64,000 nucleotides of DNA, taken from contig OZ244621.1 of assembly GCA_965218425.1 (NCBI GenBank), forward strand, positions 3,040,001 through 3,104,000, read 5' to 3'. Below are positions 70 to 25,663 of this stretch, in pieces. Each line of letters starts with the position of its first letter. Position 1 is the stretch's first letter. The position numbers and the translations under genes were made by a program. Under the pieces are notes generated by a model. That model had not been told where the DNA came from, made no database searches, and worked only from the letters and a program-made list of their open reading frames with translations. This DNA comes from an uncultured Candidatus Binatia bacterium (GTDB lineage Bacteria; Desulfobacterota; Binatia; UBA9968; CAXXLF01).

Positions 70-1029
70 CTAGGCGGTGGCCCGTTTTGCGCTCCTGGGA
101 CGGTACTTCTCGCAAAGGCCCTTCCAATGTTCCACACGCGTTTGGATACTTTTCAGCACGTTCTCCGGCACGTTGATAAAGGGTGGGCGTAACGAACCCG
201 GGTTACAGTAACCCGCCTGCTGAATAGCGATCTTGGCCGCCGTTTCGCGCCAGCTCAGATTGGGTGGCCCGCCCATACCAGAGGTGAGGCCAAGGATAAT
301 CTCCCTGGCCGTTGCTACATCGTTCTCATTAATCGCATCCCGGAGACGTAACACGGGCCAAGGTCCCATCCAGGCATCAATGGACCAGCAACCGGCCGCC
401 CCAAGTGAGGCGAAGGGATGATACTGCGCCTGGTTTACGAAGACGCTCATTTTGCCATTGACAACCTCCATGAGCCTCATAAATTCCGGTGTGGTTCGGT
501 GACTGTCCTTCATGGCCACGACGTTGGGACTCTGGGTTATTCTTTTAAGGGCGTCTACGGGTAAAGTTACATTGTGCAGCGTAGGATTGTGGTAGACCAT
601 AATAGCCAGATCCGGGAACATCTCAGCGATGTCATGGTAGAATTGCACCGCATTATCCACGGTGGAAGGAAAATAGAAGGGAACACCTACCAGCACGCCG
701 GTTCCCCCGGCTTCCCGAATGAACTTCATCTTTTGGACGGTTTCCCGGCTATTCAGGCTGGTACAGCCTATGAAGAGCGGTACCCGGCCGTTCACCGCTT
801 CCACCGTGGCACGGGTTATGGTTTCAAACTCTTCCCATAAAAGCGTGTGAAATTCGCCAAAGCTTCCTGTGGTAGTGATAACGTCACCGCCGTCGGAGAT
901 CATCCGGTCGACACCCGCTTTTAAATTGTCCACATCAATGGTGGACGTGGAATGAATGTCATTGGCGTCTGGGGTGGCGAAGGCAGGCATCATTGCCATT
1001 ACTCCGTGGAGATCCTTCGCGGTTAGCAT
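70..1029 (-). CDS. DHDPS/NAL-family hydratase-aldolase, NahE/PhdJ-like (benzylidenepyruvate hydratase-aldolase subgroup)
   Basis: 319 aa; N-terminus LTAKDLHGVMAMMPAFATPDA, GSFGE motif, GRVPLFIGCTSLNSRE, VYHNP and Schiff-base KDS resemble the NahE subgroup; GGAGG RBS upstream. Confidence 0.8.
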   Translation of the reverse strand: MLTAKDLHGVMAMMPAFATPDANDIHSTSTIDVDNLKAGVDRMISDGGDVITTTGSFGEFHTLLWEEFETITRATVEAVNGRVPLFIGCTSLNSRETVQKMKFIREAGGTGVLVGVPFYFPSTVDNAVQFYHDIAEMFPDLAIMVYHNPTLHNVTLPVDALKRITQSPNVVAMKDSHRTTPEFMRLMEVVNGKMSVFVNQAQYHPFASLGAAGCWSIDAWMGPWPVLRLRDAINENDVATAREIILGLTSGMGGPPNLSWRETAAKIAIQQAGYCNPGSLRPPFINVPENVLKSIQTRVEHWKGLCEKYRPRSAKRATA

Positions 1030-1582: not shown

Positions 1583-3040
1583 ATGGGGTCCGTTGGATAC
1601 AACGATCTGCGGGAATTTATCGATGCGGCGAAGGAGATTAGTGATTTCCGACAGGTGGACGGGGCAGATTGGAACACTGAGATCGGTACCCTCATCGAGG
1701 CGACGACAGAATTGATCCCACAACCTCCCATGCTCATGTTCGATAACATCAAAGGCTACCCTAAGGGATACAGGGTGTTGAGCCTCCCTTTTGCCGCGTA
1801 TAAACGGGTGGCCCTTGCTTTGGGGCTCCCAACGGACAGGAGCAAGCTTGAAATTCTACGGTTGGCCACTCGCAAATTCAAATCGGCGACTCCCATTCCA
1901 CCCAAAGAGGTGTCCACCTCGCCTCTCATGGAGAACGTTTCCAAGGGAGACGAAGTGGATTTGTTAAAGTTCCCAGCCTTGCATTATCACGAACATGATG
2001 GAGGACGCTATCTTGGGACCGGCGATTGCCTCATTAATGCCGACCTAGAGGGGAACTTCATCAACATGGGCACCTATCGGATGCAACTCCACGATAAAAA
2101 TCTACTGGGATTGTGGATGAGTCCCGGGCAGCATGGGAGGCTCATCTGCATGAAGTATTGGGAACAGGGCAAAGCCTGTCCCGTGGTAGCCGCCTTCAGC
2201 GTGCATCCACTTGCATTCATGGTCTCCCATTCCAAGGTTCCCTGGGGCCATTCGGAATTGGAACTTGTGGGGGGGCTTATGGGCAAACCGTTTGAAGTCA
2301 TTCGTGGGCCCATTACCGGTCTTCCCATACCAGCCAGTGCAGAGATTGCCATTGAAGGGGAAGTTCCTCCACCCAATAAGGAAGCTCGCGATGAGGGTCC
2401 ATACGGCGAATGGCCGGGATATTACTCCGGTGGGACCATAGGGACGGGTGAAGCTCAACCGGTTATCAAGGTTAAGGCACTGTACCACAGAAACAATCCC
2501 ATCCTTGAAGACGAGGCCCCGCAATGGACAATGGCCATGAAGATGGACATAAGCATATCCTCAGGGGTCTTGTGGGATCAGCTGGAGAGCGCAGGGATCC
2601 AGGACGTGGTAGGGGTGTATAGCCATAGTCCTTACCTGGTAGTTGTTTCCATTAAGCAACGGTACGCAGGGCATGCGAGACAGGCAGGATTGGCTGCTCT
2701 GAGCTGCTCGGCTGCGGCCCGTAACGGAAGATACGTTGTGGTGGTGGACGAAGATATCGATCCTACAAACATTAAGGATGTGCAGTGGGCCATGATGACC
2801 CGCGTGGATCCTAAAACCAACATTGATATTATAGATCAGTGTTGGAGTACTCCTCTGGATCCGCGCATGCCTCCGGACAGGCGAGATTCCGGTGATCACA
2901 CCAATAGCAGGGCCGTTTTTTACGCAGTCAGGCCGTTTGAATGGCGCGATAAGTTTCCCAAGGTTAGCCGGAGCCGGCGGGATCTGCGCGAACAGGTCAT
3001 AAAGAAGTTTCAGGGAATCATCCCTTTCCCCGGAGTGTAA
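1583..3040 (+). CDS. UbiD-family (prFMN-dependent) decarboxylase
   Basis: YNDLREFI start, GTYRMQ, EGPYGEWPGY, VVVVDEDIDP, WAMMTRVDP, STPLDP; AAGGAGG RBS. Confidence 0.92.
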   Translation: MGSVGYNDLREFIDAAKEISDFRQVDGADWNTEIGTLIEATTELIPQPPMLMFDNIKGYPKGYRVLSLPFAAYKRVALALGLPTDRSKLEILRLATRKFKSATPIPPKEVSTSPLMENVSKGDEVDLLKFPALHYHEHDGGRYLGTGDCLINADLEGNFINMGTYRMQLHDKNLLGLWMSPGQHGRLICMKYWEQGKACPVVAAFSVHPLAFMVSHSKVPWGHSELELVGGLMGKPFEVIRGPITGLPIPASAEIAIEGEVPPPNKEARDEGPYGEWPGYYSGGTIGTGEAQPVIKVKALYHRNNPILEDEAPQWTMAMKMDISISSGVLWDQLESAGIQDVVGVYSHSPYLVVVSIKQRYAGHARQAGLAALSCSAAARNGRYVVVVDEDIDPTNIKDVQWAMMTRVDPKTNIDIIDQCWSTPLDPRMPPDRRDSGDHTNSRAVFYAVRPFEWRDKFPKVSRSRRDLREQVIKKFQGIIPFPGV

Positions 3041-3119
3041 ATCGGAAAGCGTGATATACTATTGCGGATTAGATTAAAACGAGTTCTTTCGGCGCAATAA
3101 CTCCAAGGGGGCAAAAGCT

Positions 3120-4424
3120 ATGATGACTCAAGAAGAGAACGAACTGTTAACTCGAGTGGGTCCCGGCACACCGGCTGGCGAGATGCTCAGACGTTATTGG
3201 CAACCGGTGGCATTGGCCGAGGAGCTGCCACCGGGGGGAGCCCCAAAGGCGGTTAGGTTCTTCGGCGAGGACCTGGTGCTCTTTCGAGACGATCAGGGAA
3301 AAATCGGTCTCCTGGACATTCACTGCTGCCACCGTGGCGCAGATCTCAGCTATGGGCGGGTGGAAGACGGAGGACTCCGCTGTATTTATCATGGTTGGCT
3401 CTATGATGTGAAGGGAAACTGTTTAGACCAGCCTGGCGAGGCCGAAGGGGGCAAGAACCGTGAAGCCATTCGGCACAAAGCCTATCCCTGCCAGGAGAAG
3501 GCGGGGTTGATCTTCGGATACTTTGGTCCTGGCGAGCCGCCCCTGCTGCCGGCATACGAGATATTTGAGATTCCAGAGGAGTACCGATTCGCCCACAAAG
3601 TCTACTCCGAATGTAACTATTTACAGGGGAACGAGGGTAATATTGACCCGCGTCACCTTTCCTTCCTGCATCGTTTTTTCGACGAGAATCTAGTGGTTGA
3701 GTCGAGAGAGTCCCGGTACAGGACGGTGGGCAGGAGCAATAGCTCACCCAATCAGCTCTGCGGTGAGAATCTGGCTCCGCCCATTGAACTCGAACTGGAA
3801 GATTTCGGCGTGCGTATCCATACCTGGCGCCCGGTGGGGGAAAACGCCTACCTCAGGGTTTCCAATTTTGTGATGCCAAACCTCTGTACCGTTCCCGGAG
3901 AGACCCAAGGAGCGGGATACCTTGTTAACTGGCACGTGCCCATCGACGACGAACATCATTGGAAATTTATGATCGTTTTCAGTCGTGAGGAACCTCTGAA
4001 CAAGGAAGTGTTTCACAGTCGCTATACTACGGGGATGCTTCCTGGATACCAATCAGCGCGCAATGCCTCTAATCGCTATCTCCAGGATCGAAATGAGTTG
4101 AAAACCCGGTCCTATACGGGGATGGGATCGTCCTTTCCAGTGCACGATCTCTATGCCACGGAGAGTCAGGGGGCCATTCAGGATCGGACCAAGGAACACC
4201 TGGTCACTTCAGACAAAGCCATTGTTGCGGCGCGTAAACAGCTCTTGAAAGCGATTAAAGATGTTCAAGAAGGCCGCGATCCGATGCATGTGATCCGCAA
4301 TTCTGAACAGAACCGCTTCCCGCATATGCTTGTCATATCGGAAGTTGTTCCCACCTCGACTGATATGAAAAACTATGTGCAGGAGGTGGAATCGGGAGCG
4401 CAGGAAAAGTCGAGCGTCGTGTAG
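3120..4424 (+). CDS. Rieske oxygenase, phthalate 4,5-dioxygenase/LigXa-like oxygenase subunit
   Basis: MTQEENELLTRVGPGTPAGEMLRRYW start; CCHRG...CIYHGW Rieske motif; EGNIDPRHLSFLH; ESQGAIQDRTKEHL. Confidence 0.9.
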   Translation: MMTQEENELLTRVGPGTPAGEMLRRYWQPVALAEELPPGGAPKAVRFFGEDLVLFRDDQGKIGLLDIHCCHRGADLSYGRVEDGGLRCIYHGWLYDVKGNCLDQPGEAEGGKNREAIRHKAYPCQEKAGLIFGYFGPGEPPLLPAYEIFEIPEEYRFAHKVYSECNYLQGNEGNIDPRHLSFLHRFFDENLVVESRESRYRTVGRSNSSPNQLCGENLAPPIELELEDFGVRIHTWRPVGENAYLRVSNFVMPNLCTVPGETQGAGYLVNWHVPIDDEHHWKFMIVFSREEPLNKEVFHSRYTTGMLPGYQSARNASNRYLQDRNELKTRSYTGMGSSFPVHDLYATESQGAIQDRTKEHLVTSDKAIVAARKQLLKAIKDVQEGRDPMHVIRNSEQNRFPHMLVISEVVPTSTDMKNYVQEVESGAQEKSSVV

Positions 4425-4449
4425 TTTGTGCTCATTCTAAGGGGGTGTT

Positions 4450-5637
4450 ATGGCTCGAGTGTTGAGAATGGGAATGGCGGGCCTTGGAGTCGCCAGCACT
4501 CAAATCCTTCCCTCTGTGGCGAGGCTTTCACATATAAAAATCGCCGCAGCGGTGGATGTTCGAAAAGAAGCCATGGGAAAGTTTCGTGAAGAATACGGGG
4601 GAAAGACCTTCGATACCGTTGAGGAGATGTGCAAGAGCGACACCATCGACTTTATTTATATAGCCACCCCCAATGAGCTACATGCCGAGCATGTGATCAC
4701 GGCCGCAAAGCACGGCAAACATGCCATTGTGGAAAAGCCCATGGCGCTGTCCATTGAACAAAGTGAGGCCATGAACGACGCGGCGGAAAAATACGGGACT
4801 AAACTGCTGTGCGGACACACCCACAGCTTCGATCCCCCCGTCAGGAAGATACGGGAAATCGTCAAAAATGGCGAGCTGGGTAGGCTCTGCATGATCAACA
4901 CCTGGAATTACAACGAGTTCATGTACCGCCCGAGGATGAAGCATGAGCTGGCCACGAGCCGGGGAGTGGTGTTAAACCAGGGGCCCCATCAGGTGGATGT
5001 GGTCCGATTGATTGGCGGAGGAATGGTCAGGAGTGTCAGAGCCACCACTGGCATCTGGGACCCATCCCGTGTCCACGAGGGAAGTTATGTAGTCTATTTA
5101 GAATTTGAAAACGGAGTACCTGCCACTCTGGTCTATAGCGGTTACGGTTTCTTTGACACGGCTGAGCTCCACTGGTGGGTGGGGGAAGGGGGCCAGCCAA
5201 GGAAGCCAGATCATAATCTCAATGTGCGACGCAGGCTCCGTGCAATCAGTGACCCCGAAAAGGAGGAATCACTTAAGGAGCAAATGCGCTACGGGGGGCA
5301 ACGTGAGGGAGAGTACAGTCACAGGTCTCAGGGTGAGAGGAAACAACCCTTCTTTGGCTTCACTGTAGTGACTTGTGAAAAGGGCGACATCCGGCAGTCT
5401 CAGGACGGGTTGATTATTTATGGAGATGAAGAAAAGCGCGAGGTGCCCCTTGAGGCGCGTCGAATCGGACGGGAAGCCGAGATGGACGAGCTTTACAATG
5501 CGGTGGTGAACAAACGGCCGGTCTTTCACGATGGTCGCTGGGGTGAGGCAACCCTCGAGGTTTGCATTGCGATATTGGAATCTGCCAAGCAACGGAAGGA
5601 ATTATCTCTTTCCCATCAGGTACCGAGCCCCGAATGA
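4450..5637 (+). CDS. Gfo/Idh/MocA oxidoreductase, phthalate 4,5-cis-dihydrodiol dehydrogenase-like
   Basis: GMAGLG, ATPNELH, VEKPMA, GHTHSFD, FMYRPR, NQGPHQVD, HDGRWGEATLEVC; directly follows the Rieske oxygenase. Confidence 0.85.
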   Translation: MARVLRMGMAGLGVASTQILPSVARLSHIKIAAAVDVRKEAMGKFREEYGGKTFDTVEEMCKSDTIDFIYIATPNELHAEHVITAAKHGKHAIVEKPMALSIEQSEAMNDAAEKYGTKLLCGHTHSFDPPVRKIREIVKNGELGRLCMINTWNYNEFMYRPRMKHELATSRGVVLNQGPHQVDVVRLIGGGMVRSVRATTGIWDPSRVHEGSYVVYLEFENGVPATLVYSGYGFFDTAELHWWVGEGGQPRKPDHNLNVRRRLRAISDPEKEESLKEQMRYGGQREGEYSHRSQGERKQPFFGFTVVTCEKGDIRQSQDGLIIYGDEEKREVPLEARRIGREAEMDELYNAVVNKRPVFHDGRWGEATLEVCIAILESAKQRKELSLSHQVPSPE

Positions 5638-6902: not shown

Positions 6903-7868
6903 ATGGCTCCTGCTCCGGTTATGGTCATTGGCGGGTCCGGTTTTCTCGGCTCCCACGTTTGCCTCGAGCTGGCTGAGAAAAGTATCGACGTCATCTCCTT
7001 TGACGTTCAAGCCCCTGATTTCGAGGTGCCTAAATCGACCCCTGGTTCCATAAGGTCCGTTGTGGGGGATATTTTGGACCCGAAATCGTTGTCCGATTGT
7101 GTTCGTGACCTTGGCGTCGGCGCAATCATTCATACTGTGGCCTTCGGTAACGAGGCTGCCGCAAGACAGAGTCCCCATCCTGCGATTACACTGAATGTTC
7201 AAGGCACCTTGAACGTTTTGGAGGCGGCTAGGAAAAACGAGATCCAAAGGCTTGTTTATATCAGTACCGCCGGGGTCTACGGCAAACAAAGCGAAGAAGC
7301 TCCCATCAAGGAAGACCAGGCCATCACCTGGCGGGGAACCATCTATCATCCGAGCCATTACATGGGCGAAATCCTGGTGGAGATGTTTCACCAGGTCTAC
7401 GGTGTGCAGGGGGTTATTCTCCGTCCCCTGTCACTCTACGGGCCCGCCCTCTCATCGAACAAGGACAAACACCTAAGGACAAAATCTCTGTTCCTGGGAG
7501 GGTGGATTAAGCAGGCCCTTAAGGGAGAGGTCACGGAGATCCATCATGCGGACACTCTCACTGATCTTACCTACGTAAAGGACTTGGCCACCGCGGTATT
7601 GTTGGCCTATGCCACGCCAAAATTAAAGCAATGGGTGTTTAACATTAGCTCGGGGGTTCTGGTGTCCTATAGAGACATTGCCCTAGCCATTCAGAACAAT
7701 CTACCCAGTGCGGAATTTGAGTTTCACCCGGGAACACAGGACAACCCCCTAAGGCCCAACCGAGGCCCGTTGGATATTTCCAGGGCCAAAGAGGAGTTTC
7801 AGTTCGTGCCGCAGTATGATCTACAGCACGGGATGCATAAATTTATTGCTTGGTGTATGGCTGGTTAA
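6903..7868 (+). CDS. NAD-dependent epimerase/dehydratase (extended SDR)
   Basis: GGSGFLG, NVQGTLNVLEAA, LRPLSLYGP, DLTYVKD; the YxxxK position reads YHPSH. Confidence 0.85.
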   Translation: MAPAPVMVIGGSGFLGSHVCLELAEKSIDVISFDVQAPDFEVPKSTPGSIRSVVGDILDPKSLSDCVRDLGVGAIIHTVAFGNEAAARQSPHPAITLNVQGTLNVLEAARKNEIQRLVYISTAGVYGKQSEEAPIKEDQAITWRGTIYHPSHYMGEILVEMFHQVYGVQGVILRPLSLYGPALSSNKDKHLRTKSLFLGGWIKQALKGEVTEIHHADTLTDLTYVKDLATAVLLAYATPKLKQWVFNISSGVLVSYRDIALAIQNNLPSAEFEFHPGTQDNPLRPNRGPLDISRAKEEFQFVPQYDLQHGMHKFIAWCMAG

Positions 7869-7900
7869 GCGAAGGCTGGAAGCATTTTTGGAGGAAAGGG

Positions 7901-8626
7901 ATGGACGTCGTCATGTCGGAATCAAATGTAGGAACCTTTAATGAATATGAGAAATGGTGGGATCAGGAAGCGAAACCGCTATATGAGAAGTGGATGGCGC
8001 TGCCATTTTTTACTGACCTACGGGCTGGAAAACTCACGGAAGAACGACTCAAGACATGGCTGGGTAACTGGTACGGCCATGTGCAGGAAGGCGATATGCA
8101 TCGGGCTCTCCTGTGGTCCAGGCACCATTACATTCTCGGGCGGTTCCCCGAAATGGAGGAAATTGTTACCGAGAGAGCTGGAAAATCCCTCAACTATCCT
8201 TACCCGGGCGGGCAGGTGCGTGGCCTTCTCAAATTGAGCGACGCTTTGGGAGTGAGCCACCAGCAGTTACTTCAGTCCCGTACAGGCCCATTCACGGTTC
8301 ACCTCACCAGTTTTCTGAAATCCTTGTATCTGGAAGGAACCTTGGCAGAATCTGCCTCTCAACTCATTGGGGAAGAGTATCTTTTGCAATTTTGCGAACT
8401 ATTCCAGGAGGCCCTTGGCAAACCCCCTTTTAAACTCAAGGGCGATGCGTTGGACTATTTTAAATTTTGGAAAAGATGCTTGCTGATGGACCATGGCAGT
8501 CCAGGAAGGTTCCTTCTCAAGTCTCTTTTTGATAAAGGGCTGGTGGAGGAGCGACCCAACGCGGGTATCAGGCATGTGGGAAAGAGGTACGCCGAATATT
8601 TGATCCGAGTGTATCAAAGTCTTTAA
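7901..8626 (+). CDS. Heme-oxygenase-like (TenA/PqqC/CADD superfamily) protein lacking most metal ligands
   Basis: LPFFTDLRAGKL; aligns by eye with the downstream paralog (YPYPGGQ vs DPRPGGH; DHGSPGRFLLKSLFDKGLV vs EHGPEGELLLARLYKLGLV); start set at ATG 7901 after GGAGG. Confidence 0.7.
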   Translation: MDVVMSESNVGTFNEYEKWWDQEAKPLYEKWMALPFFTDLRAGKLTEERLKTWLGNWYGHVQEGDMHRALLWSRHHYILGRFPEMEEIVTERAGKSLNYPYPGGQVRGLLKLSDALGVSHQQLLQSRTGPFTVHLTSFLKSLYLEGTLAESASQLIGEEYLLQFCELFQEALGKPPFKLKGDALDYFKFWKRCLLMDHGSPGRFLLKSLFDKGLVEERPNAGIRHVGKRYAEYLIRVYQSL

Positions 8627-8668
8627 TAACAGGCTTTTGCTATAAATTTTCTCTAAAGGGGACAACCT

Positions 8669-9436
8669 ATGGCCGGTGAGCTAGTGCAATTTCCTACCTT
8701 CCAGTCTTTTAAATCCTGGTTTGACGAAAAGACGAAGACTCATCCTTTTAAAACAGGGAAGGAGCGGGGGCGTTTTTATGATGATTTCGCCCAGGGAAAA
8801 GTCCCCAGGGATTTTTTGAAGGAGTATGCCAAGCAATACTATATCTTTATACAGCTAACCAATACCAACGTGACTTGGACCATTGTGAACTACCTGGATC
8901 TGTGGCGTAAAAACCCTGATCTCTACGATATCGTGGCTTCGAAGATCGGATCCGAGCTGGCTGACCCCAGACCAGGCGGCCATGGTCGTACCTATATAAA
9001 ATTCGCACGCTACCTGGGTCTGAAGGACGAAGACCTCCATTACTCAAAGCCCATCCCGGAGCTGGAGGCCCGTTTCAACACTGCCCTCGTTTACCGGTCG
9101 CAGAGTCCTGCGCTGACCGCAGTCAGGTGGATGTTGGAAGGATTTGTCGGATACAGCATGAAGTTTTGGCGTGACGTCCTGCATGAAAAATACGACATTC
9201 CCGATGAGCTGCTGGAGTATTGGGATATTCACGTAGTGGCAGATCTAGAGGAGCATGGACCAGAGGGCGAACTGCTACTTGCCAGGCTGTATAAACTCGG
9301 CCTGGTTAGGGAAGACGATTACGATGGAATGAAGGTGCAGGTGGATAGGGCTGTGGAAGGGGCGCGTCCAGGAAGCAAGACTCTCCCGTGGCCCGACGCC
9401 CTCTACGCCAGTTACTGTGAGCGCCACCCGCAATGA
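8669..9436 (+). CDS. Heme-oxygenase-like putative diiron oxidase (PqqC/CADD-like), paralog 1
   Basis: HPF, FAQGK, EYAKQYY, ELADPRPGGH, MLEG, YWDIHVVADLEEH: an E/H/E/H/D/H ligand pattern like CADD. Confidence 0.8.
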   Translation: MAGELVQFPTFQSFKSWFDEKTKTHPFKTGKERGRFYDDFAQGKVPRDFLKEYAKQYYIFIQLTNTNVTWTIVNYLDLWRKNPDLYDIVASKIGSELADPRPGGHGRTYIKFARYLGLKDEDLHYSKPIPELEARFNTALVYRSQSPALTAVRWMLEGFVGYSMKFWRDVLHEKYDIPDELLEYWDIHVVADLEEHGPEGELLLARLYKLGLVREDDYDGMKVQVDRAVEGARPGSKTLPWPDALYASYCERHPQ

Positions 9437-9563
9437 GCAATGCGGGCAGTCAGAACAGAAGGCACCGTTCAAAAAAGGGAGTTTGTCTTCACCTGAGTTC
9501 TGATTGCGATGGTATTACCGGCGGAAACCGAATAGTCAATCAGATTTCCCGAAGAAAGGGGCA

Positions 9564-11120
9564 ATGATGATGAAACGAATTATGGTGATAACCGTTTGTT
9601 TCGGACTCCTTGTGGGTTTGGCACTGGAAGGCATTGCGGATCAGCCAAAGCGCGGTGGGACCCTTAGAATGGCCATCCGAAAAGACATCGATATTATGAA
9701 CCCGTTGGTCGGCACAAAGTCCACCGATGGGCGGATTCGCGAGCTGATGTTCGAGCCGTTGTTGGGGATCGACCTGCAAGGCAATGTCCACCCAAACCTG
9801 GCGGAGTCGTGGGAGATGTCTCAAGGCGGTAGGGTTTACACTTTCAAGCTCCGCAAAGGGGTGAAGTTCCACAACGGGAGAGAGATGACCGCAGAGGATG
9901 TAAAGTTTTCCATTGACTACACCCTGAACCCGAAGAATGGTGCCTACGGCTTGGTTCGGCTTGCCTTGTTAGACCGGGCGGAGGTGGTTGGCAAGTACCG
10001 CTTGAAGCTGTACCTGAAGAAAGCTGGCCCGGGTTTTCTCTCCGTGTTGACCAACATCCAAACCTTCTCAGTGGTTCCCAAAGAGTCACTGCCGGAGGGG
10101 ATCGAGAAACTCGTTAACTTTCCGCCCGGAACCGGTCCTTTTAAGCTGGTAGAATGGAAGCCTGGACGGCGAATCGTAATGGAACGTTACGACGACTACT
10201 GGGGGCATAAGGCTTATATCGATAAACTGGTTCTAAGGCCGGTGAGGGACGCGACGGTGCGTTTCACGGCGCTGCGGTCGGGAGATGTGGACTTGGTGGC
10301 ACGGACACCCCTGGAGTGGGTACGGCAGGTGGCCGACGGCAAGGTAAAGGGGGTCAAATTTTCTGCGGCTACTCATGCGGAATTTCGTAGCATTGAGTTC
10401 AACCTGGTTCGTCCGCCCTTTGACAACAAGAAGTTGCGCCAGGCCGTCGTCCATGCCGTTAATAAGAACGAGCTCCTGGAGGCCGGCTTCTTTGGCTTCG
10501 GCGATCCCACCGACCAAAAATACCCCAAAGGACATGCCTGGTACCTGGAGGGAGTGCCATCCTATACCTATGATCCCGATAAGGCGATGAAGCTGCTGAA
10601 AGAGGCCGGTTACAAAGGACAAGCCATCGAGATGTTGGTCCAACAGTCGGCGGCACGAGAGGCCGAGGCGGCCATGCTCCAGGCCCAGCTCAAGAAAGTG
10701 GGAATGAATATCAAGCTCGCTATGGTAGGACGTGGGGTCTACAATGCGCTCCTGCGCAAGGGCGAATTTTCCTTTCATGCCGGCGGTGGCAGCTACTACG
10801 CGGACCCTTCGATTACCTATGGGCCGGATCTCAGGTGTGCCCCGGACCTAAAGAAGCGCAGCAGCAATAACTCCGGATACTGCCGGCAGGAGATGGATAC
10901 CTTGCTCGATAAGGCGGAATCGGAATCGGATCCGGCTAAGAGAAAGATGCTGTTCAAACAGATCGTTAAGATATCAGTTGAAGATTTACCGGAAATGAAT
11001 ATTGGCTTTGGGCCACAGTTCTATACCTTCCGCGATTATATCAAGGGTTTTACCACTGACAGTGATGCTGCGTTTCGTTGGTGGGGAGGCGGGATAAGCC
11101 ACACGTGGATTGACAAGTAG
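9564..11120 (+). CDS. ABC transporter substrate-binding protein, peptide/nickel (SBP_bac_5) family
   Basis: PKRGGTLR, PNLAESWE, YTFKLRKGVKFHNG, PGTGPFKL, PPFDNKKLRQA. Confidence 0.92.
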   Translation: MMMKRIMVITVCFGLLVGLALEGIADQPKRGGTLRMAIRKDIDIMNPLVGTKSTDGRIRELMFEPLLGIDLQGNVHPNLAESWEMSQGGRVYTFKLRKGVKFHNGREMTAEDVKFSIDYTLNPKNGAYGLVRLALLDRAEVVGKYRLKLYLKKAGPGFLSVLTNIQTFSVVPKESLPEGIEKLVNFPPGTGPFKLVEWKPGRRIVMERYDDYWGHKAYIDKLVLRPVRDATVRFTALRSGDVDLVARTPLEWVRQVADGKVKGVKFSAATHAEFRSIEFNLVRPPFDNKKLRQAVVHAVNKNELLEAGFFGFGDPTDQKYPKGHAWYLEGVPSYTYDPDKAMKLLKEAGYKGQAIEMLVQQSAAREAEAAMLQAQLKKVGMNIKLAMVGRGVYNALLRKGEFSFHAGGGSYYADPSITYGPDLRCAPDLKKRSSNNSGYCRQEMDTLLDKAESESDPAKRKMLFKQIVKISVEDLPEMNIGFGPQFYTFRDYIKGFTTDSDAAFRWWGGGISHTWIDK

Positions 11121-11163
11121 CCGCGGCCGCCGAGAGAATCAGTATCAAGCAAAGGGGTTTGCG

Positions 11164-12291
11164 ATGAAGCGTCCTGTGAGCATGACAAAGGTCCCTCCCA
11201 TGACCAGTTACGAGGAGTGGATGAAAGGAGAGGGGATACCCGTGATTGAGGCAGAAGGTGGGATTGAAGACGTTAAAGAGGTTGACCGTAAACCCTGGGC
11301 CCGTACCGGTGGTAAGGGGGCGTTAATTTATTTGAAGGGGTTGAAGCAATCAGGCTTTACCGGAATGTATGTGGGGGAAATCGACCCGGGAAAGGTCCTC
11401 AACCCCGAGCGGCATCTCTATGAGGAACTGATCTACATTCTGAAGGGTCAGGGGGCCACTGAGATCTGGCAGGAGGGCCAACCTAAGAAGACTTTTGAAT
11501 GGGGTGAGGGGAGCTTCTTCGCTCCTTCATTAAATGCCTGGCATCGATTATACAACGTGGGTAAGGAACCGGTAATTTTCCTCGGTGTTACCAATGCTCC
11601 CATAGTGATGGATCTCTACCACAATCCGGACTTTGTTTTTGGAGATAGTTTTAAGTTCACAGACCGGTATGACGGCGAAGAGGACTACTTCAAAACAGCC
11701 AATCGGGTGGAACGGGGCAAAGGGGAACACTTGGTCTTGGAAACGAATTTCATTTCTGATCTGAAAAGCGCCTTCGTGGATCCCCGCAAGCGGCCAAAAG
11801 GGGAGGGTGTCCGGATCATGGGATTCGAGATCTCAGAAAACATCCTCACCGGGCATATCTCTGAGTGGCCGGTGGGTATGTACCATAAGGCCCACTATCA
11901 TGGACCAGGTGCTATACTCCTTGGCTTGAAATCGAAAGGTTATGTCCTAATGTGGCCCAAAGAGTTAGGGACTACTCCCTTTAAGGACGGGTATGGGGAT
12001 CAAGTTCTCCGGATCAACTGGGGAGATGGGGCAGTCTATAGCCCGGGAAACGGCTGGTTCCATCAACACTTTAACACCGGGGTAGAACCGGCACGCCACA
12101 TCGCCTTTCGTACCGGCGGTGCAAAGTATCGCATTGGGCTTCGCGGCAGCGACAACACAAGGGCCACCGTCACCAGTATCAAAGAGGGAGGTGCCATGAT
12201 CGAGTACGAAGATGAGGACCCCCAGGTGAGGCGAGACTTTGAGGAGGCGTTGCGGGAGGCCGGGATTGCCTGTGAAATGCCAACCCTATGA
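11164..12291 (+). CDS. Two-domain cupin protein
   Basis: ERHLYEELIY...WHRLYN and HKAHYHG...WFHQHFN cupin motifs; start placed at ATG 11164. Confidence 0.82.
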   Translation: MKRPVSMTKVPPMTSYEEWMKGEGIPVIEAEGGIEDVKEVDRKPWARTGGKGALIYLKGLKQSGFTGMYVGEIDPGKVLNPERHLYEELIYILKGQGATEIWQEGQPKKTFEWGEGSFFAPSLNAWHRLYNVGKEPVIFLGVTNAPIVMDLYHNPDFVFGDSFKFTDRYDGEEDYFKTANRVERGKGEHLVLETNFISDLKSAFVDPRKRPKGEGVRIMGFEISENILTGHISEWPVGMYHKAHYHGPGAILLGLKSKGYVLMWPKELGTTPFKDGYGDQVLRINWGDGAVYSPGNGWFHQHFNTGVEPARHIAFRTGGAKYRIGLRGSDNTRATVTSIKEGGAMIEYEDEDPQVRRDFEEALREAGIACEMPTL

Positions 12292-12448
12292 GAATTGTGG
12301 TTTTCGGAGCCAAGGGAGAGAGGACGGCCGGCCCCTTGGATACGAGCTAGTGTAAGGACCGCTCCCAATGAACGATCGAGAAGTTACCCTTCTGCGCCTT
12401 TGAAGCAGAGATCGGCCTGGTAAGAACGGTCTTCGCCAAGAAAAACCC

Positions 12449-13219
12449 ATGGACACACAGGCAACACAATTTCCAACTTTTGATTCGTTCAAGGTCTGGT
12501 TTGATGAGAAAACCAGGAGCCATCCATTTAGAACCGGCAAGATAGAAGGGCAGTTCCTGAAAGATTTTGTTCAGGGAAAGGTTCCCATTGACTTTCTCAA
12601 GCAGTACGTCCAACAAAATTATTTCTTCATCCAGAATACCAATGCCAGTTTGGCTTGGACACTCGTGAATCACCTTGATTTGTGGCGGCGACATCCCGAC
12701 CTTTACGATATGGTGGCCGCCAAGATAGGAGAGGAGTTTTGCGATCCTGGTCCGGGTGGTCATGGTCGCACCTATATTAAGTTCGCTCGCTATTTGGGTG
12801 TAAAAGACGAGGAACTTATCCATGCCAAGCCCATTCCTGAGATGGAAATCAGGTGGCTCAATGTAAGTAGCACATATCGCTCCCAACGACCCACTGTGTT
12901 AGCAGTGAGTTGGATCATGGAGGGGTTTGTTGGTTACGATATGAAGCTCTGGCGTGACATATTGCATGATAAGTATAGTGTCCCCGACGAATTCCTTGAG
13001 TTTTTTGATATTCATGTGAAGGCGGACCTTGAGGAGCATGGTCCCATGGGTGAGATGTTGCTGGCGAGACTCTATGAGCTGGGCTTGGTGCAGGAACAGG
13101 ACTACGACGAAATGAGGGCTTGGGTTGACAGGATCGGTAACGAAGCCCTGCAACGTGCCCGAGGCAACTCCTGGCGAGATGCCATCTATCTTCGATTCTG
13201 CGCAAGTCATGCCATCTGA
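12449..13219 (+). CDS. Heme-oxygenase-like putative diiron oxidase, paralog 2
   Basis: EEFCDPGPGGH, IMEG, FFDIHVKADLEEH; clear paralog of 8669..9436. Confidence 0.8.
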   Translation: MDTQATQFPTFDSFKVWFDEKTRSHPFRTGKIEGQFLKDFVQGKVPIDFLKQYVQQNYFFIQNTNASLAWTLVNHLDLWRRHPDLYDMVAAKIGEEFCDPGPGGHGRTYIKFARYLGVKDEELIHAKPIPEMEIRWLNVSSTYRSQRPTVLAVSWIMEGFVGYDMKLWRDILHDKYSVPDEFLEFFDIHVKADLEEHGPMGEMLLARLYELGLVQEQDYDEMRAWVDRIGNEALQRARGNSWRDAIYLRFCASHAI

Positions 13220-13356
13220 CTCGACCATGGAATCCTGTCTTGAAAATCGGGTACTCGTGCTTTCATGACCTCTAGAACTCGTCAGGATATAATCTAGAAC
13301 CATTGTGATCTGCGAAATGGAAATGTACGTTGCGAGATCAAGGGAGGGCGAAAAAG

Positions 13357-14778
13357 ATGGCCTACAATGACTTAAGAGAATTTACCGATGCGCTTGAGCA
13401 GGAAGGTGAGCTACATCGCATTACCGTGCCGGTAGATCGCGAGTGGGAGGTGGGGGCCATATGTCGCGAAGTATCGGACCGAAATGGGCCGGCGTTGTTG
13501 TTCGAGCGGGTAGGGGATTTTACAACGCCGTTGGTTACAGGTGTCCTGGGGACCCGCAAGCGTTACGGGAAGGCTTTAGATGTGGGACCGGACATTTCGA
13601 GCATTTCAAAACGTTGGGAACAGGCCTATGCCTGTCCGGTTTCTCCGCGGGAAACCACAAAAGCATCTTGCAAGGAGGTGATCCTACGGGATGTTGATTT
13701 TTTCAAGGATCCGTTTCCCATTCCCCGTTGGCATCACCTGGATGGAAAGTACATGCTGGGGACCTATCATGCTGTGATCACCCAGGACCCGGAGACAGGC
13801 TGGATTAACCTGGGAACCTACAGGAACGCCATCTTTGAGCCCAATATCCTTGGCTGTGCTTCTTCACCACGCCGCCACCTCTGGCAGCACTGGAGCAAGT
13901 ACAAGGCCATGGGCCGACCTATGCCCATTGCCATTGCCATTGGATTGGATCCCTATCTCGCGCTTGTTACTGTCAGTGCGGTGCCCCCGGGTATTGGGGA
14001 CTATGCCGTTGCGGGTGGTCTCAAACGGGGTCCTATTGAAACCGTGAAGGCTGAGACCAGCGATCTTCTGGTTCCGGCCCATGCGGAAATGATTATTGAA
14101 GGGGAAATGCCCACGGATAAAACCTACGAGTCTTCGGACGGACCCTTTGGTGAATTCGCAGGTTACATGGGCGGATCACGACCTCGTCACTGGTACATCG
14201 ATGCAAAGATGGTAACCCATCGGCAGAGTCCAATTTTTCAGGGAACCTACGAGGGGCGTGCCCCAAACGAGAGCACCACGGTGCGGGCCACGGGTGGATC
14301 CATGGGTTTAAAACAGTTTCTGCAAAAGTCCGGGATACCTGGGGTCGTTGGTGCCTGCATAACCGAAGGTGGTTGCGGCACGTTCCATGCCGTAGTGAGC
14401 ATCCAGAAATCCTATCCGGGACAGGTCCAGGATATCTTAAGCCTCGTGTGGGGTATGCCCACCCTGTCTGTCAAGCTATGTATTGTCGTGGACGATGACG
14501 TTGATCCGTGGAATCCTCAAAAGGTTGAATGGGCTTTGGCGACTCGGATGCAAGCGAGTCGAGATGTTGAGATCATTCGTCATAGCCGGGGCCTGGCCCT
14601 GGATCCGTCGAAACCGCCTTCCAATAGCCTGCGGTCTGACAAAATGGGTATCGACGCGACAAGGCCAGAGTTCGAATACAAGCAGGAAGATCAGGAGTTC
14701 CCGGCCTCGGCGGATCCTAATCAAGAACACCTGGAGCAGGTGCGCGGTCGCTGGAGTGAGTACGGATTTCGTTTCTGA
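13357..14778 (+). CDS. UbiD-family decarboxylase
   Basis: MAYNDLREF, NLGTYR, DGPFGEFAGY, IVVDDDVDP, WALATR, KMGIDAT. Confidence 0.92.
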   Translation: MAYNDLREFTDALEQEGELHRITVPVDREWEVGAICREVSDRNGPALLFERVGDFTTPLVTGVLGTRKRYGKALDVGPDISSISKRWEQAYACPVSPRETTKASCKEVILRDVDFFKDPFPIPRWHHLDGKYMLGTYHAVITQDPETGWINLGTYRNAIFEPNILGCASSPRRHLWQHWSKYKAMGRPMPIAIAIGLDPYLALVTVSAVPPGIGDYAVAGGLKRGPIETVKAETSDLLVPAHAEMIIEGEMPTDKTYESSDGPFGEFAGYMGGSRPRHWYIDAKMVTHRQSPIFQGTYEGRAPNESTTVRATGGSMGLKQFLQKSGIPGVVGACITEGGCGTFHAVVSIQKSYPGQVQDILSLVWGMPTLSVKLCIVVDDDVDPWNPQKVEWALATRMQASRDVEIIRHSRGLALDPSKPPSNSLRSDKMGIDATRPEFEYKQEDQEFPASADPNQEHLEQVRGRWSEYGFRF

Positions 14779-18800: not shown

Positions 18801-19170
18801 AAAGGCACTCCACTGAATAACTTACATGGAATTATTCGTGCAGATGGAGCCTATCACGGGGAAAGGGGATAAAGTCAAGGGGTTCTAGCGCCGGTTCATT
18901 AGTGCACATTCTATGCTCCTGCATTTTGGGGCTTGGGAGACGGCTCCCCTCGATCTTCCTCGCGGTTGCGAGCAACTTTCTTCGGTGCAAGCCCCCTTCG
19001 CCCCAAAACCGCAATGGACCAGGGGAGCTAGGCAGGTCGCCTCAGGTCACAGCAGTGCCAGTGAACTTGACTTTAAACCTCCCCATGGAATATGTGAGAA
19101 GGGGATTGGCAGGTTTTTATTACCAGTAAAGATAAAAATTAGATGTAAACTACTTACAAGGAGCACGCCG

Positions 19171-20295
19171 GTGAGAAAAACAGCAGAGACAACCTACGAG
19201 AAATGGATGAAGAAAGAGGGGATCCCCATCATTGAGGATTATGGATTGCGAAACCTGCGGGAATTGGAACGTCGGCCATGGTCGCGCACGGGCGGTTTGG
19301 GTGCCTTTGTTGAACTCAAAGGCATGGAAGGTTTTACCGGCACATACATAGGCGAGATTCCGGGCGGCCAAGCCCTCAAACCGGAACGTCACATGTATGA
19401 GGAAGTGATCTATATCCTCGAGGGGTTGGGCCTCACCGAGGTCTGGGCATCGAGTTCGGGGAATGAAAAGGTCCGATTTGAATGGGGACCAGGGAGTATG
19501 TTTGCCATACCTCTCAACGCCCGGCATCGCCTTTATAATGGTGCCCGGGACCCTGTGGTCTTTTTGGCAGTGACGAGTGCCCCGGTTATGATGGACCTGC
19601 TGCATAACGAGGATTTTATTTTTAACTGCGATTACTGGTTTGCCGATCGCTTTAACGGTAGCGCCGATTATTTTAAGACCAGCAACAATCGATACCGAAG
19701 CGAAAGTGGAAGCGAAGTCTGGGAAACCAACTTCATCGCAAACGTTAACGGTGCCTTGACCGATCATAAACGTCATCACAAGGCCGTGGGCGGCGGCACC
19801 ACCCTGTTTCAGATTGCCGAAAACGCCCTCGTAGGCCACATCGCGGAGTGGCCCACAGGCAGTTACCATAAAGCACACTGGCATGGCGGCGGAGCCGTTC
19901 TGTTCCCCATCAGTTCCGAAGGGTACGTTTTACTGTGGCCTAGGGAAGCTGGTACCCGCCCCTATCAACAAGGAAATGGAGACAAGGTGGTCAAGGTGTA
20001 TTGGCAAGAAGGGGGCATGTACAGCCCGCCCACCGGGTGGTTTCATCAGCATTTCAATACCGGTGGGGAGCAGGCAAAACACGTGGCGTTTCGTTATTCG
20101 GAAAACAATCACAAATACGCCTTTGGCATCTTCAAGGCCTCCGTGCTCGGGGGTGTCAATGTGAGCATCCGAGATGGCGGGAATCTTATTGAGTATGAGG
20201 ATGAGGACCCCAAGATCAGGCGGGATTATGAGGAGGAGCTCGCAGAAAAGGGAATTAAATGCGAGATGCCTCCGGTGGACTATCGATTGGATTAA
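19171..20295 (+). CDS. Two-domain cupin protein, paralog of 11164..12291
   Basis: YEKWMKKEGIP, ERHMYEE, HKAHWHG, WFHQHFNTG, IEYEDEDP; GTG start after AAGGAG. Confidence 0.82.
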   Translation: MRKTAETTYEKWMKKEGIPIIEDYGLRNLRELERRPWSRTGGLGAFVELKGMEGFTGTYIGEIPGGQALKPERHMYEEVIYILEGLGLTEVWASSSGNEKVRFEWGPGSMFAIPLNARHRLYNGARDPVVFLAVTSAPVMMDLLHNEDFIFNCDYWFADRFNGSADYFKTSNNRYRSESGSEVWETNFIANVNGALTDHKRHHKAVGGGTTLFQIAENALVGHIAEWPTGSYHKAHWHGGGAVLFPISSEGYVLLWPREAGTRPYQQGNGDKVVKVYWQEGGMYSPPTGWFHQHFNTGGEQAKHVAFRYSENNHKYAFGIFKASVLGGVNVSIRDGGNLIEYEDEDPKIRRDYEEELAEKGIKCEMPPVDYRLD

Positions 20296-20336: not shown

Positions 20337-21683
20337 ATGAAAAAAACCAGAAAAAGTGTCCAGCCCAGGAAGAAGCCATCCCAATCGGGAAACGGTTTCT
20401 TGAACAAGCTGGTGCAGGTGGATAAGGGGGTCATAAGCTCGCGGATCTTTAATGACCCCGAGATCAATCGACTGGAGATGGAGCGGATCTTTACCCGAAG
20501 TTGGCTTTATGTTGCCCATGAGTCGGAAATACCCAAGGCCGGGGATTTCGTAACCCGTTATATGGGGGAGGATCCCGTAATTGTGTGGCGGGGGCAGGAC
20601 GGCAAGGTGAGAGTGTTTTTAAATGTCTGTCGCCACCGTGGGATGAGAGTGTGTGGTCAGGATATGGGTAAAGCCTCTCAATTTCGATGTTCCTACCATG
20701 GCTGGACGTACAGCAATCTGGGGGAGCTGATTTCTGTCCCGTTTTACGAAGGATACCATGGGGCGTTGGACATGAGCAGTCTGGGCCTCTGTCGGGCTCC
20801 AAGGGTGGAAAGCTACCATGGGCTTGTATTTGCCCACTGGGAACCAAAAGGGCAATCCCTGGACGATTACCTGGGCGAGATGAAGTGGGTGTTGGATATC
20901 CTATTCGGGCGTTCCGCGGAAATGGAAGTGGTGGGGGCCCCCATGAGGTGGGAAGCGGATGCCAATTGGAAGTTGGGAGCCGCGAACTTCTCTGGAGACG
21001 GCGTGCATCTCTTTACCACCCACGGATTCAGGTCGGCTCTGGGTTTAGAAGATAAGATGCAGGGTGAGCGTAAGAGTTTTCGCATGATCACTGAAAACGG
21101 ACATGCCTCCTCCCTCACAGGGTTTACGGGTAATTTTGCCATGGGATTACCGGAAGAATTACGGCCAGAAATGGAACGCCACCTCACCGCACAACAGTTG
21201 AAGTTTCTCGACCCTCTGCTCATTGCTGTGGGCAACGTTTTTCCGAACATGAGTTTTCTTAACAGCGGGCAACACACTTCCGCAGAGTGGGGAGGTGGCG
21301 ACGCCGGGAAGGATGTGGTTTCTTTTCTTACCCTGCGCCTATGGCAACCAAAAGGGGCGGACAAGATGGAAATTTGGTCCTGGTGTTTCGTGGACAAGAA
21401 CACCTCGGATGAATGGAAGCGGGCATCCAAGGAATCCTATCTTCGTGTGTTTGGCGCAGGGGGGATGTTTGAACAGGATGACATGGAGAATTGGGGCGAA
21501 ATCACCCAGGGCCTGCGGGGCCCCATAGCAAAGCGACTCATGCTGCAATACAAAATGGGAGTGGGTGTACCGCGTAAAGATCGTCCCATCAAGGGCCTCA
21601 AAGATATGATGGTGGGCGGCTTGAGTGAGGACAGCGAGCGTTCGTTTTACCGCAATTGGCACAAGCTCATGATGCAGGAATAG
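20337..21683 (+). CDS. Aromatic ring-hydroxylating dioxygenase alpha subunit
   Basis: NVCRHRG...CSYHGW; NWKLGAANFSGDGVHLFTTH; FEQDDMEN. Confidence 0.93.
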   Translation: MKKTRKSVQPRKKPSQSGNGFLNKLVQVDKGVISSRIFNDPEINRLEMERIFTRSWLYVAHESEIPKAGDFVTRYMGEDPVIVWRGQDGKVRVFLNVCRHRGMRVCGQDMGKASQFRCSYHGWTYSNLGELISVPFYEGYHGALDMSSLGLCRAPRVESYHGLVFAHWEPKGQSLDDYLGEMKWVLDILFGRSAEMEVVGAPMRWEADANWKLGAANFSGDGVHLFTTHGFRSALGLEDKMQGERKSFRMITENGHASSLTGFTGNFAMGLPEELRPEMERHLTAQQLKFLDPLLIAVGNVFPNMSFLNSGQHTSAEWGGGDAGKDVVSFLTLRLWQPKGADKMEIWSWCFVDKNTSDEWKRASKESYLRVFGAGGMFEQDDMENWGEITQGLRGPIAKRLMLQYKMGVGVPRKDRPIKGLKDMMVGGLSEDSERSFYRNWHKLMMQE

Positions 21684-21687
21684 AAGA

Positions 21688-22218
21688 ATGGAGATGGGTG
21701 GCAACGGGAGGAACCTGAGCCCCGCTGATCCCTGTTACGCGGAGATCGTCGAATTCCTCCATCGGGAGGCGGAGCTCTTGGATCACGGGCGATTTTCGGA
21801 TTGGTTGGGGATGCTCGCCGGGGATGTGAGGTATCGCATGCCGGTACGTTCGAACCTGGCGCCAGCACGGTCGGATTATAGGGAAAAAACGGAAATCTTC
21901 TCTGAGAATATGGCCTCACTGCAGGTCCGGGTGAAGCGGTTGAGTACGGACTATGCCTGGGCCGAAAGCCCCCGGTCTCGGACCCGCCATCTCGTTACCA
22001 ATGTGCGCGTACGGGTGACGGAAAACCCACAGGAAGTGGAAGTGTCGAGCTATATCCTTGTTTATCGCAACCGGTCGAACTCGTCGAGCCAGGACCTGCT
22101 ATCCGGGGAAAGACAAGATAGGATGCGCCGGGTTGATGGGAAATGGCGCTTGGCTTCAAGGACGGTTTTATTGGATCAGGTGGTGGTTGGGTCGAGGAAC
22201 CTTAGTATTTTCTTCTAA
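21688..22218 (+). CDS. Ring-hydroxylating dioxygenase beta subunit
   Basis: FLHREAELLD, YRMPVR, WAESPRSRTRHLVTNV, NLSIFF. Confidence 0.93.
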   Translation: MEMGGNGRNLSPADPCYAEIVEFLHREAELLDHGRFSDWLGMLAGDVRYRMPVRSNLAPARSDYREKTEIFSENMASLQVRVKRLSTDYAWAESPRSRTRHLVTNVRVRVTENPQEVEVSSYILVYRNRSNSSSQDLLSGERQDRMRRVDGKWRLASRTVLLDQVVVGSRNLSIFF

Positions 22219-22223
22219 CGTCA

Positions 22224-22994
22224 ATGGAGCCTAACCAAAGAATAAGCTTTCCAACCTTTAGTTCATTTAGGGACTGGTTTCATGAGAAAACGAAGAACCA
22301 TCCGTTTAAAACTGGCAGGAACCGGGGCCCATTCCATGAGGATTTCGCTCGAGGGAAAGTGCCCATGGATTTTCTGAAGGAGTACGCGAAGCAGTACTAC
22401 ATCTTTATCCAACTGACCAATACGAATGTGACCTGGACCCTGGTGAACTACCTCGACCTGTGGCGGCGCAATCCTGACCTCTACGATATCGTGGCCGCGA
22501 AGATCGGGTCCGAGCTGGCGGACCCCAGACCCGGGGGGCATGGTCGAACCTACATCAAATTTGCCCGTTACCTCGGGCTAAAGGATGAAGATCTCCATTA
22601 TTCCAGGCCCATCCCAGAGCTGGAAGCCCGCTGTAATACCGCGCTCGTGTATCGGTCCCAGACTCCGGCCCAGACGGCGGTCAGGTGGATGCTAGAAGGC
22701 TTTGTGGGTTATTACATGAAGTCCTATCGCGAGATACTGCATGAAAAATATGGTGTTCCAGACGAGATGCTCGAGTATTTCGACATCCATGTGCTGGCGG
22801 ATCTTGAAGAACATGGCCCTGAAGGCGAGTTGTTGCTGGCGAGGCTCTACAAGCTAGGTTTGGTCAATGAGGAGGACTATGAAGGGATGCGGGTACAGGT
22901 GGAACGAGCGGCTGGAGGCCCCCAACCTGGTAGCCAATACTTCTCATGGCCAGATGTACTCTATGACCGCTACCGGAGCCAACATCCCCTGTAG
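22224..22994 (+). CDS. Heme-oxygenase-like putative diiron oxidase, paralog 3
   Basis: Long identical blocks shared with 8669..9436 (KEYAKQYYIFIQLTNTNVTW; KIGSELADPRPGGHGRTYIKFARYLGLKDEDLHYS); HVLADLEEH. Confidence 0.8.
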   Translation: MEPNQRISFPTFSSFRDWFHEKTKNHPFKTGRNRGPFHEDFARGKVPMDFLKEYAKQYYIFIQLTNTNVTWTLVNYLDLWRRNPDLYDIVAAKIGSELADPRPGGHGRTYIKFARYLGLKDEDLHYSRPIPELEARCNTALVYRSQTPAQTAVRWMLEGFVGYYMKSYREILHEKYGVPDEMLEYFDIHVLADLEEHGPEGELLLARLYKLGLVNEEDYEGMRVQVERAAGGPQPGSQYFSWPDVLYDRYRSQHPL

Positions 22995-23167
22995 GGGTTG
23001 AGGTGACTGGGTCCAAGATGGCCTTGCCGTCATTAAAAAAATGGTAGTCATGTGTCCCATCAACCGGTTTCTGAACAAAAAACGACCAAAGGGTTTGACG
23101 GTTTACAAAAGCAGTTTGAGTCCCACGGCAATTTTATGCTATTGATCCGCAGTCCTATGGGGTCTAT

Positions 23168-24418: not shown

Positions 24419-24456
24419 AGCGGTTTTAGTTTTCCCTCGGGAGGAAATTCCAATTC

Positions 24457-25581: not shown

Positions 25582-25663
25582 GACCGGTGGTGAAACCTCG
25601 CCAGCAAATCCAATCCCCGGGATCCTCTTTACTAATTCCCTCGGATACGGCGCGGAGTTGAGC

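Follow-up and report, generated by a model that had tools for sequence, protein, structure and literature searches.

A conserved ligand-poor protein of heme-oxygenase fold next to an intact HDO-type protein in Candidatus Binatia, with indirect support for a heteromeric HDO

The gene at 7901-8626 of the window (the whole stretch of 64,000 nucleotides analysed here) encodes a real, conserved protein of heme-oxygenase (HO) fold, P0001, which is poor in metal ligands and lies directly before an intact HDO-type protein, P0002. Several indirect lines of evidence, drawn from sequences and from structural models, support a heteromeric HDO. We consider it rather probable that P0001 is a non-catalytic subunit pairing with its intact neighbour, much as PaaC stands beside PaaA in phenylacetyl-CoA epoxidase. 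Relative to the HDO literature that we found, such an arrangement may be new. The whole window is present letter for letter in contigs from two runs of two studies, either of which may be its source, and the near relatives are Candidatus Binatia.

Table 1. Features of the window, with related loci of the source genome (C1) in the last rows
Feature	Position	Strand	Remarks
PhdJ/NahE-like hydratase-aldolase	70..1029	-	PhdJ E 1.3e-46
UbiD-family decarboxylase, phthalate-4,5-dioxygenase-type Rieske oxygenase, GFO-family dehydrogenase	1583..5637	+	
Extended SDR (epimerase-like)	6903..7868	+	YxxxH in place of YxxxK; directly upstream of the ligand-poor gene
Shine-Dalgarno-like GGAGG	7890..7894	+	ahead of the ligand-poor gene
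Ligand-poor HO-fold protein (P0001)	7901..8626	+	241 aa; motif S-Q-E-W-L-H; proposed non-catalytic subunit
Intact HDO-type protein A (P0002)	8669..9436	+	255 aa; full E-H-E-H-D-H; predicted binding partner
Family-5 binding protein, cupin protein, paralog B, second UbiD	9504..14778	+	
Cupin	11110..12291	+	
Intact HDO-type paralog B (P0003)	12449..13219	+	159/255 positions identical to A; interface 20/33
Cupin	18913..20295	+	
Rieske alpha and beta subunits, paralog C, two class III CoA transferases, thiolase-like protein	20337..26824	+	
Intact HDO-type paralog C (P0004)	22224..22994	+	200/255 positions identical to A; interface 30/33; candidate second partner
Tandem class III CoA-transferase genes	23168..25581	+	
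ORF resembling insertion-sequence integrase fragment	46641..47216	+	
Two lineage II tandem pairs, intact and ligand-poor	C1:174652-176402 (L043), 4285315-4286959 (L044)		amidohydrolase, cupin, UbiD and aldolase genes around
Lone ligand-poor gene behind a UbiD gene	C1:1165504-1166307 (L045)		
Distant lone intact lineage II gene	C1:3953750-3954601 (L046)		

Sequence, fold and conservation of the ligand-poor protein

Both genes lie on the forward strand with open reading frames, separated by 42 nt. The initial annotation had described the upstream gene as intact with a strong ribosome-binding site, which is correct: the frame is open and a GGAGG stands 6 nt before the ATG. P0001 and P0002 share 24% identity over 226 columns (BLASTP, E = 9e-15), and the profiles of their families match over 219 columns (profile-profile comparison, probability 98.6, E = 9.6e-16).

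The ligand motif of HDOs, as given in the available text of PMC11363339, is E-H-E-H-(D/E)-H. This dimetal motif is present in P0002 (E96, H105, E157, H188, D192 and H196, equivalent to E81, H88, E142, H174, D178 and H181 of CADD, where the CADD numbers are counted from the profile alignment of the P0002 family) and absent in P0001, which has S96, Q105, E158, W190, L194 and H198 at the same sites, that is, two of the six HDO ligands. The motifs quoted in the initial annotation are exact and their segments align without gaps, so that the change of metal ligands between the two proteins, as it had claimed, is confirmed.

To see how far these changes are shared, we compared 18 ligand-poor sequences (the protein search gave 18 matches; one near-identical to the query was omitted, and 17 at 62-87% identity were kept with the query) with 57 intact ones (the query and 56 of 62 matches, six short ones being omitted). 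All six ligands are found in each of the 57 intact members, whereas the full motif occurs in none of the 18 ligand-poor members, with a maximum of three ligands in any of them. The first Glu is lost in all 18 (P, S or A instead), the first helix-3 His is Trp in all 18, and the motif Asp is replaced by L, W or F across the family, a fixed loss. The four substitutions listed in the annotation (E to S, H to Q, H to W and D to L) are all present in P0001, but the second is not fixed in the family, as the helix-1 His (Q105 in P0001) is retained in 10 of 18 members. The last motif His is kept in P0001 and in five members overall, with Tyr in the other 13, and the bridging Glu is invariant. The residues R68, R74, H75, R92, E158 and E159 are invariant and lie outside the interface predicted below; H134 is found in 17 of 18 members, C165 is invariant and C193 nearly so. 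Conserved Trp/Tyr columns number 16 versus 11 in the two families, an excess that could hint at a radical relay, with a similar overall Trp/Tyr content (0.089 versus 0.083).

P0002 matches PF14518 above the cut-off and, judging by its residues, is likely a diiron oxidase. It is not a member of the CADD family as defined by TIGR04305 (28.8 bits, cut-off 200); its whole family scores 25-35 bits against that cut-off, and the equivalent of the CADD substrate residue Tyr27 is retained in just 26 of the 57 members. P0001 scores 14.7 bits with the PqqC model TIGR02111 (cut-off 240) and has no match to the thiaminase II model TIGR04306 at E = 0.1, while two of the 18 family members do match the latter (best E = 0.02). 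Weak matches to PF03070 are seen in 16 of 18 members.

The AlphaFold2 model of P0001 (pLDDT 81.5, with residues 91-102 uncertain) has the seven-helix HO-like fold. Using Foldseek and VIA-align we found CADD, UndA, PqqC and TenA as top matches; in all rows shown the matches are HO-fold proteins, and the model does not have the ferritin-like fold. The closest structure is CADD (Z 20.6, rmsd 2.7, 207 aligned), followed by a TenA-annotated homologue and UndA (18.3-18.7), PqqC (18.0) and other TenA proteins (16.4-16.9). We were not able to find any meaningful relative in PDB sequence searches with P0001 or with its alignment, and in the ESM Atlas the matches were confined to PF14518/PF03070 clusters without a name.

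The ligand-poor gene is under strong purifying selection. Its dN/dS is 0.032-0.140 in 9 of the 28 pairs among eight loci (the remaining pairs are saturated), and for the closest pair it is 0.057, where the intact neighbour has 0.026 and the SDR gene 0.166; mean dN is 0.20 for the ligand-poor and 0.17 for the intact gene. In quick trees (five rows were removed before the first, and 47 rows were kept in a later one) the ligand-poor family stands as a separate clade with a long branch and is not embedded within the neighbours. Neither the topology in which it is sister to the neighbour's clade (p-AU = 0.615) nor that in which all ligand-poor groups form one clade (p-AU = 0.729) was rejected. That the gene might be a decaying duplicate of its neighbour is hardly credible: one metagenomic copy (L027) is split by a frame break, but the low dN/dS with mostly saturated synonymous sites, the identity retained among the 17 other family members and a clade far from that of the neighbour all speak against it. 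The view of the annotation that the gene does not look like decay is thus borne out; a pseudogene or recently decayed duplicate is rejected by dN/dS and clade position, and a recent duplication of 8669-9436 as the origin of the gene by its own clade and long branch.

Conserved pairing and its recurrence

An intact gene of the P0002 type lies downstream of the ligand-poor gene in all nine non-redundant other loci, adjacent in seven and after one cupin gene in two; a cupin of the type at 11110-12291 sits between the two genes in L025 and L028. Of 123 genomes of the order, four carry the ligand-poor gene, in single copy, and the same four carry the intact type, in 3, 5, 3 and 2 copies; a class sample of 301 genomes gave no further orthologue. 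The pair is therefore conserved across genomes, a check that the annotation had proposed. Note, however, that linkage and co-occurrence alone cannot separate a complex from a pathway, since the genomes are related and carry these genes within a single cluster.

The intact neighbours across loci do not form one clade, and a dedicated one-to-one partner clade is rejected (p-AU = 0.0057). Together with the interface residues that paralog C has in common with P0002, this is what one would expect if the partner is shared and not dedicated. The ligand-poor protein may thus be a subunit common to several intact paralogs, given one ligand-poor gene per two to five intact genes in a genome and neighbours that come from different paralog branches.

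The SDR gene is found directly upstream of the ligand-poor gene in all eight other loci with upstream sequence and is single-copy in the same 4 of 123 genomes, one to one with the ligand-poor gene; it is at least as tightly linked to it as the intact HDO. The usual SDR motif is YxxxK, which is also seen in the best PDB match of this protein, whereas YHPSH (YxxxH) is invariant in all nine sequences. The protein may be an atypical oxidoreductase or itself non-catalytic. A further database sequence, P0089, is probably a chimera of assembly: its first 68 residues match the ligand-poor family and the rest resembles the SDR. In one RNA run (5% of words), each of the three genes is covered in part by short contigs that stem from relatives and are 90-99% alike; these demonstrate neither co-transcription nor level of expression. 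In scans for promoters and terminators, the number of sites did not exceed that in shuffled sequences.

In the source genome (4.46 Mb) there are 36 HO-fold ORFs representing 35 genes; one is broken into two frames (C1:3609922-3610754), and most have a full or nearly full motif. Three or more ligands are lost in five of the genes, four of which lie within 100 nt of an intact gene, and in four of the five tandem HO-fold pairs just one of the two genes is ligand-poor (permutation p = 0.006, rising to 0.015 when a sixth borderline gene is counted, with labels set after inspection). In one other HO-fold gene (C1:3838938-3839663) the first helix-3 His is Ala and the other sites are apparently kept; the end of a related gene is seen just downstream of the intact HDO in G038 (L004:1-384).

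The pairing recurs in what we call lineage II, in which a ligand-poor clade is matched by an intact one. Their copy numbers match: three of each in the source genome and one of each in G214, G105 and G297. At the thresholds used, we did not find lineage II in the other genomes of the 123, and a phylum-wide sample of 401 genomes gave one weak extra match. In three places the intact and ligand-poor genes are neighbours, in three others they are widely separated, and one ligand-poor type is without an adjacent intact gene in three genomes. In G214 and G105, too, the lone ligand-poor and lone intact types occur once each and at a distance from one another, suggesting a pair that acts in trans.

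In a search of 1.84 billion representatives, four of the 62 matches are proteins of 507-519 aa in which two separate stretches match (P0086, P0091, P0093 and P0123), and all four consist of an intact N-terminal and a ligand-poor C-terminal half. The same order is found in a 540-codon ORF (L029:5704-7326), which brings the full-length fusions to five, and in the partial sequence P0102. The clusters of the four proteins hold 7, 3, 7 and 2 members, so that isolated errors of assembly are an unlikely source of the fusions. Two of them, P0093 and L029, are fused forms of lineage II. The domain order, intact first, is the reverse of the gene order in our window. In P0086, the stretch that best matches the ligand-poor family studied here is the intact half; a single-sequence fold of this fusion reached pLDDT 40, and it had no relative in viral contigs. 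A weak search of 8000 scored candidates gave no fused or longer form of the subfamily of P0001 itself.

Predicted complex and alternative roles

We folded P0001 with P0002, together with controls. The heterodimer, modelled with both alignments, scored 0.70, compared to 0.01 for the best of three controls; this score is reached by 116 of 157 solved complexes and by 2 of 215 mismatched pairs, a calibration that holds only roughly for our own alignments. The runs agree in at least 92% of contacts, with a partner pLDDT of at least 89, and the predicted interface is pseudo-symmetric, formed mainly by residues about 59-125 of both chains. A heterodimer prediction, one side of the hetero- versus homodimer comparison that the initial annotation had suggested as a check, thus passes its controls, although it may reflect likeness to the known dimer rather than a preference for the heterodimer, because the solved HDOs are homodimers: UndA, BesC, CADD, AetD, SznF and FlcD are so in crystals (PMC11363339, available part). 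We were not able to find a significant excess of conservation at the interface (0.84 versus 0.78 elsewhere, p = 0.077).

If the model is right, P0001 would take the place of the second protomer in a pseudo-symmetric dimer, and a homodimer with two sites would become a heterodimer with one. The intact chain would, to judge by its motif and gene context, bind two metals and activate O2 on a ring intermediate. The ligand-poor chain might, by analogy with PaaC and PaaA, stabilise the intact chain or shape or gate its pocket.

The claim of the annotation that P0001 is a non-catalytic partner subunit is therefore supported in part. In its favour are the contrast in ligands between the two families, purifying selection, the conserved pair, the heterodimer model, the intact and ligand-poor fusions, the matched copies of lineage II and the tandem pairs of the source genome. 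Of the three refuting conditions that the annotation had set, a pair that is not conserved and a degenerate copy that evolves neutrally are both contradicted. Against the claim, intact genes outnumber ligand-poor ones by about 3:1 and some lie far from any ligand-poor gene, one ligand-poor type of lineage II is without an intact neighbour in three genomes, the copy in L027 is split, and a 2026 review describes the HDOs examined to date as needing no effector protein (PMC13108848). The score of the model may echo the known homodimers, its interface is not significantly more conserved, and no fusion of the subfamily was seen in the weak search. Potentially, P0001 could be instead an enzyme or a ligand-binding protein that works on its own and independently of metal in the same pathway, acting for example on a polycarboxylated ring intermediate. 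This is the main rival, and we judge it unlikely. Two enzymes of one pathway in related loci would give linkage and co-occurrence just as well as a complex would, the invariant residues outside the interface, with H134, could form a pocket of their own, and P0001 is conserved about as well as the intact enzyme. PqqC and TenA, which have the HO fold in common with P0001, use it free of metal (PMC11363339, available part), and the active-site residues of TenA are Cys135 and Glu205 (PMC10277260, available part). On the other hand, P0001 is far below the family cut-offs of both and structurally nearer to CADD than to either, the heterodimer model passed, and a stand-alone role by itself predicts neither repeated fusion to intact domains nor the matched copies of lineage II.

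Two further readings concern other partners and other metal sites. The main partner of P0001 might be the SDR, be it as the sole partner or in a complex of three that includes the intact HDO, which the SDR's constant upstream position, single copy and invariant YxxxH would favour; this is improbable, as no such SDR adjoins the other pairs and fusions examined and the modelled interface is with the HDO. Still less probable is that P0001 binds one metal at a rearranged site, like the mononuclear HDOs FlcD and HamA, which have the HO fold with a changed ligand motif, as P0001 does. The invariant bridging Glu, a second Glu following it and the helix-1 His kept in 10 of 18 members would be available for this. 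FlcD, however, is a homodimer in which E-H-E-H is retained with one iron and just the two final residues of the motif are missing (PMC11363339, available part). In P0001 the FlcD-type motif of first Glu, first His and first helix-3 His is absent; no member of its family has the first Glu or the first helix-3 His, and none has more than three of the six ligands.

Extending the preferred reading of a non-catalytic subunit, one may think of a branch of alpha/beta HDO enzymes in Binatia, in which a metal-free twin (adjacent, distant or fused, depending on the lineage) would be an obligate effector gating cluster assembly or O2 activation and helping to bind a carboxylated aromatic substrate. In the window, one beta subunit and the YxxxH SDR would then serve several interchangeable alpha paralogs, and the whole would be a multicomponent oxygenase of modular build that converged on the design of the multicomponent monooxygenases with ferritin fold. 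We regard this larger scheme as conceivable but doubtful.

Related systems and genomic surroundings

HDOs are known mostly from natural-product biosynthesis. The annotation knew of no characterised HDO with an arrangement such as that proposed here, and our literature search agrees, in that it found no heteromeric or tandem-domain HDO, with most subscription papers and supplements outside its reach. The words "heterodimer" and "subunit" have no occurrence in the available text of the review PMC13108848, and the partner that it names is the reductase MboB. MboA is indeed an HDO with a dedicated partner, but MboB is a flavin and Fe-S reductase and not an HDO paralog (PMC13185094, available part). 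About 9% of the sequence groups of HDOs are without a predictable motif (PMC11363339, available part).

CADD (CT610) and NePabS, the HDO 4-aminobenzoate synthases (PDB 1RCW, 8VA9, 9PJ4), are related to both proteins: CADD is the nearest structure to P0001 and heads the sequence matches of the intact family (E = 2.5e-4), with the six-residue motif in common with P0002. It differs in being a homodimer whose chains each have a metal site, where P0001 has two of six sites, and in that the context of P0001 and P0002 is catabolic. The closest working analogy for P0002 and P0001 is PaaA and PaaC, also from aromatic catabolism, where the catalytic diiron subunit PaaA pairs with the structural PaaC of the same fold at 17% identity (PMC4498308, available part). 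PaaA and PaaC have the ferritin-like fold and work with PaaB and the reductase PaaE, whereas P0001 and P0002 have the HO fold; we identified no PaaB-like or PaaE-like partners next to the pair.

If a heteromeric, catabolic branch of HDOs is real, it would change how the family is mined, lone intact genes might fail when expressed alone, and ligand-poor members of the family would not be junk. The single-chain fusions and the short pair in our window make the idea of a heteromer testable, and the fusions are good targets for structure determination.

The genes around the pair (see Table 1) suggest that the cluster likely breaks down carboxylated aromatic compounds, as far as gene content tells; there are no thiamin or PQQ genes among the annotated neighbours. 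The two class III CoA-transferase genes stand in tandem, the second being shorter and lower in score (212 versus 343 bits), and may be another two-subunit pair. The two cupins listed are related to each other and have weak matches to named dioxygenases. Further downstream, the ORF at 46641-47216 resembles a fragment of an insertion-sequence integrase, an impression gained from its translation.
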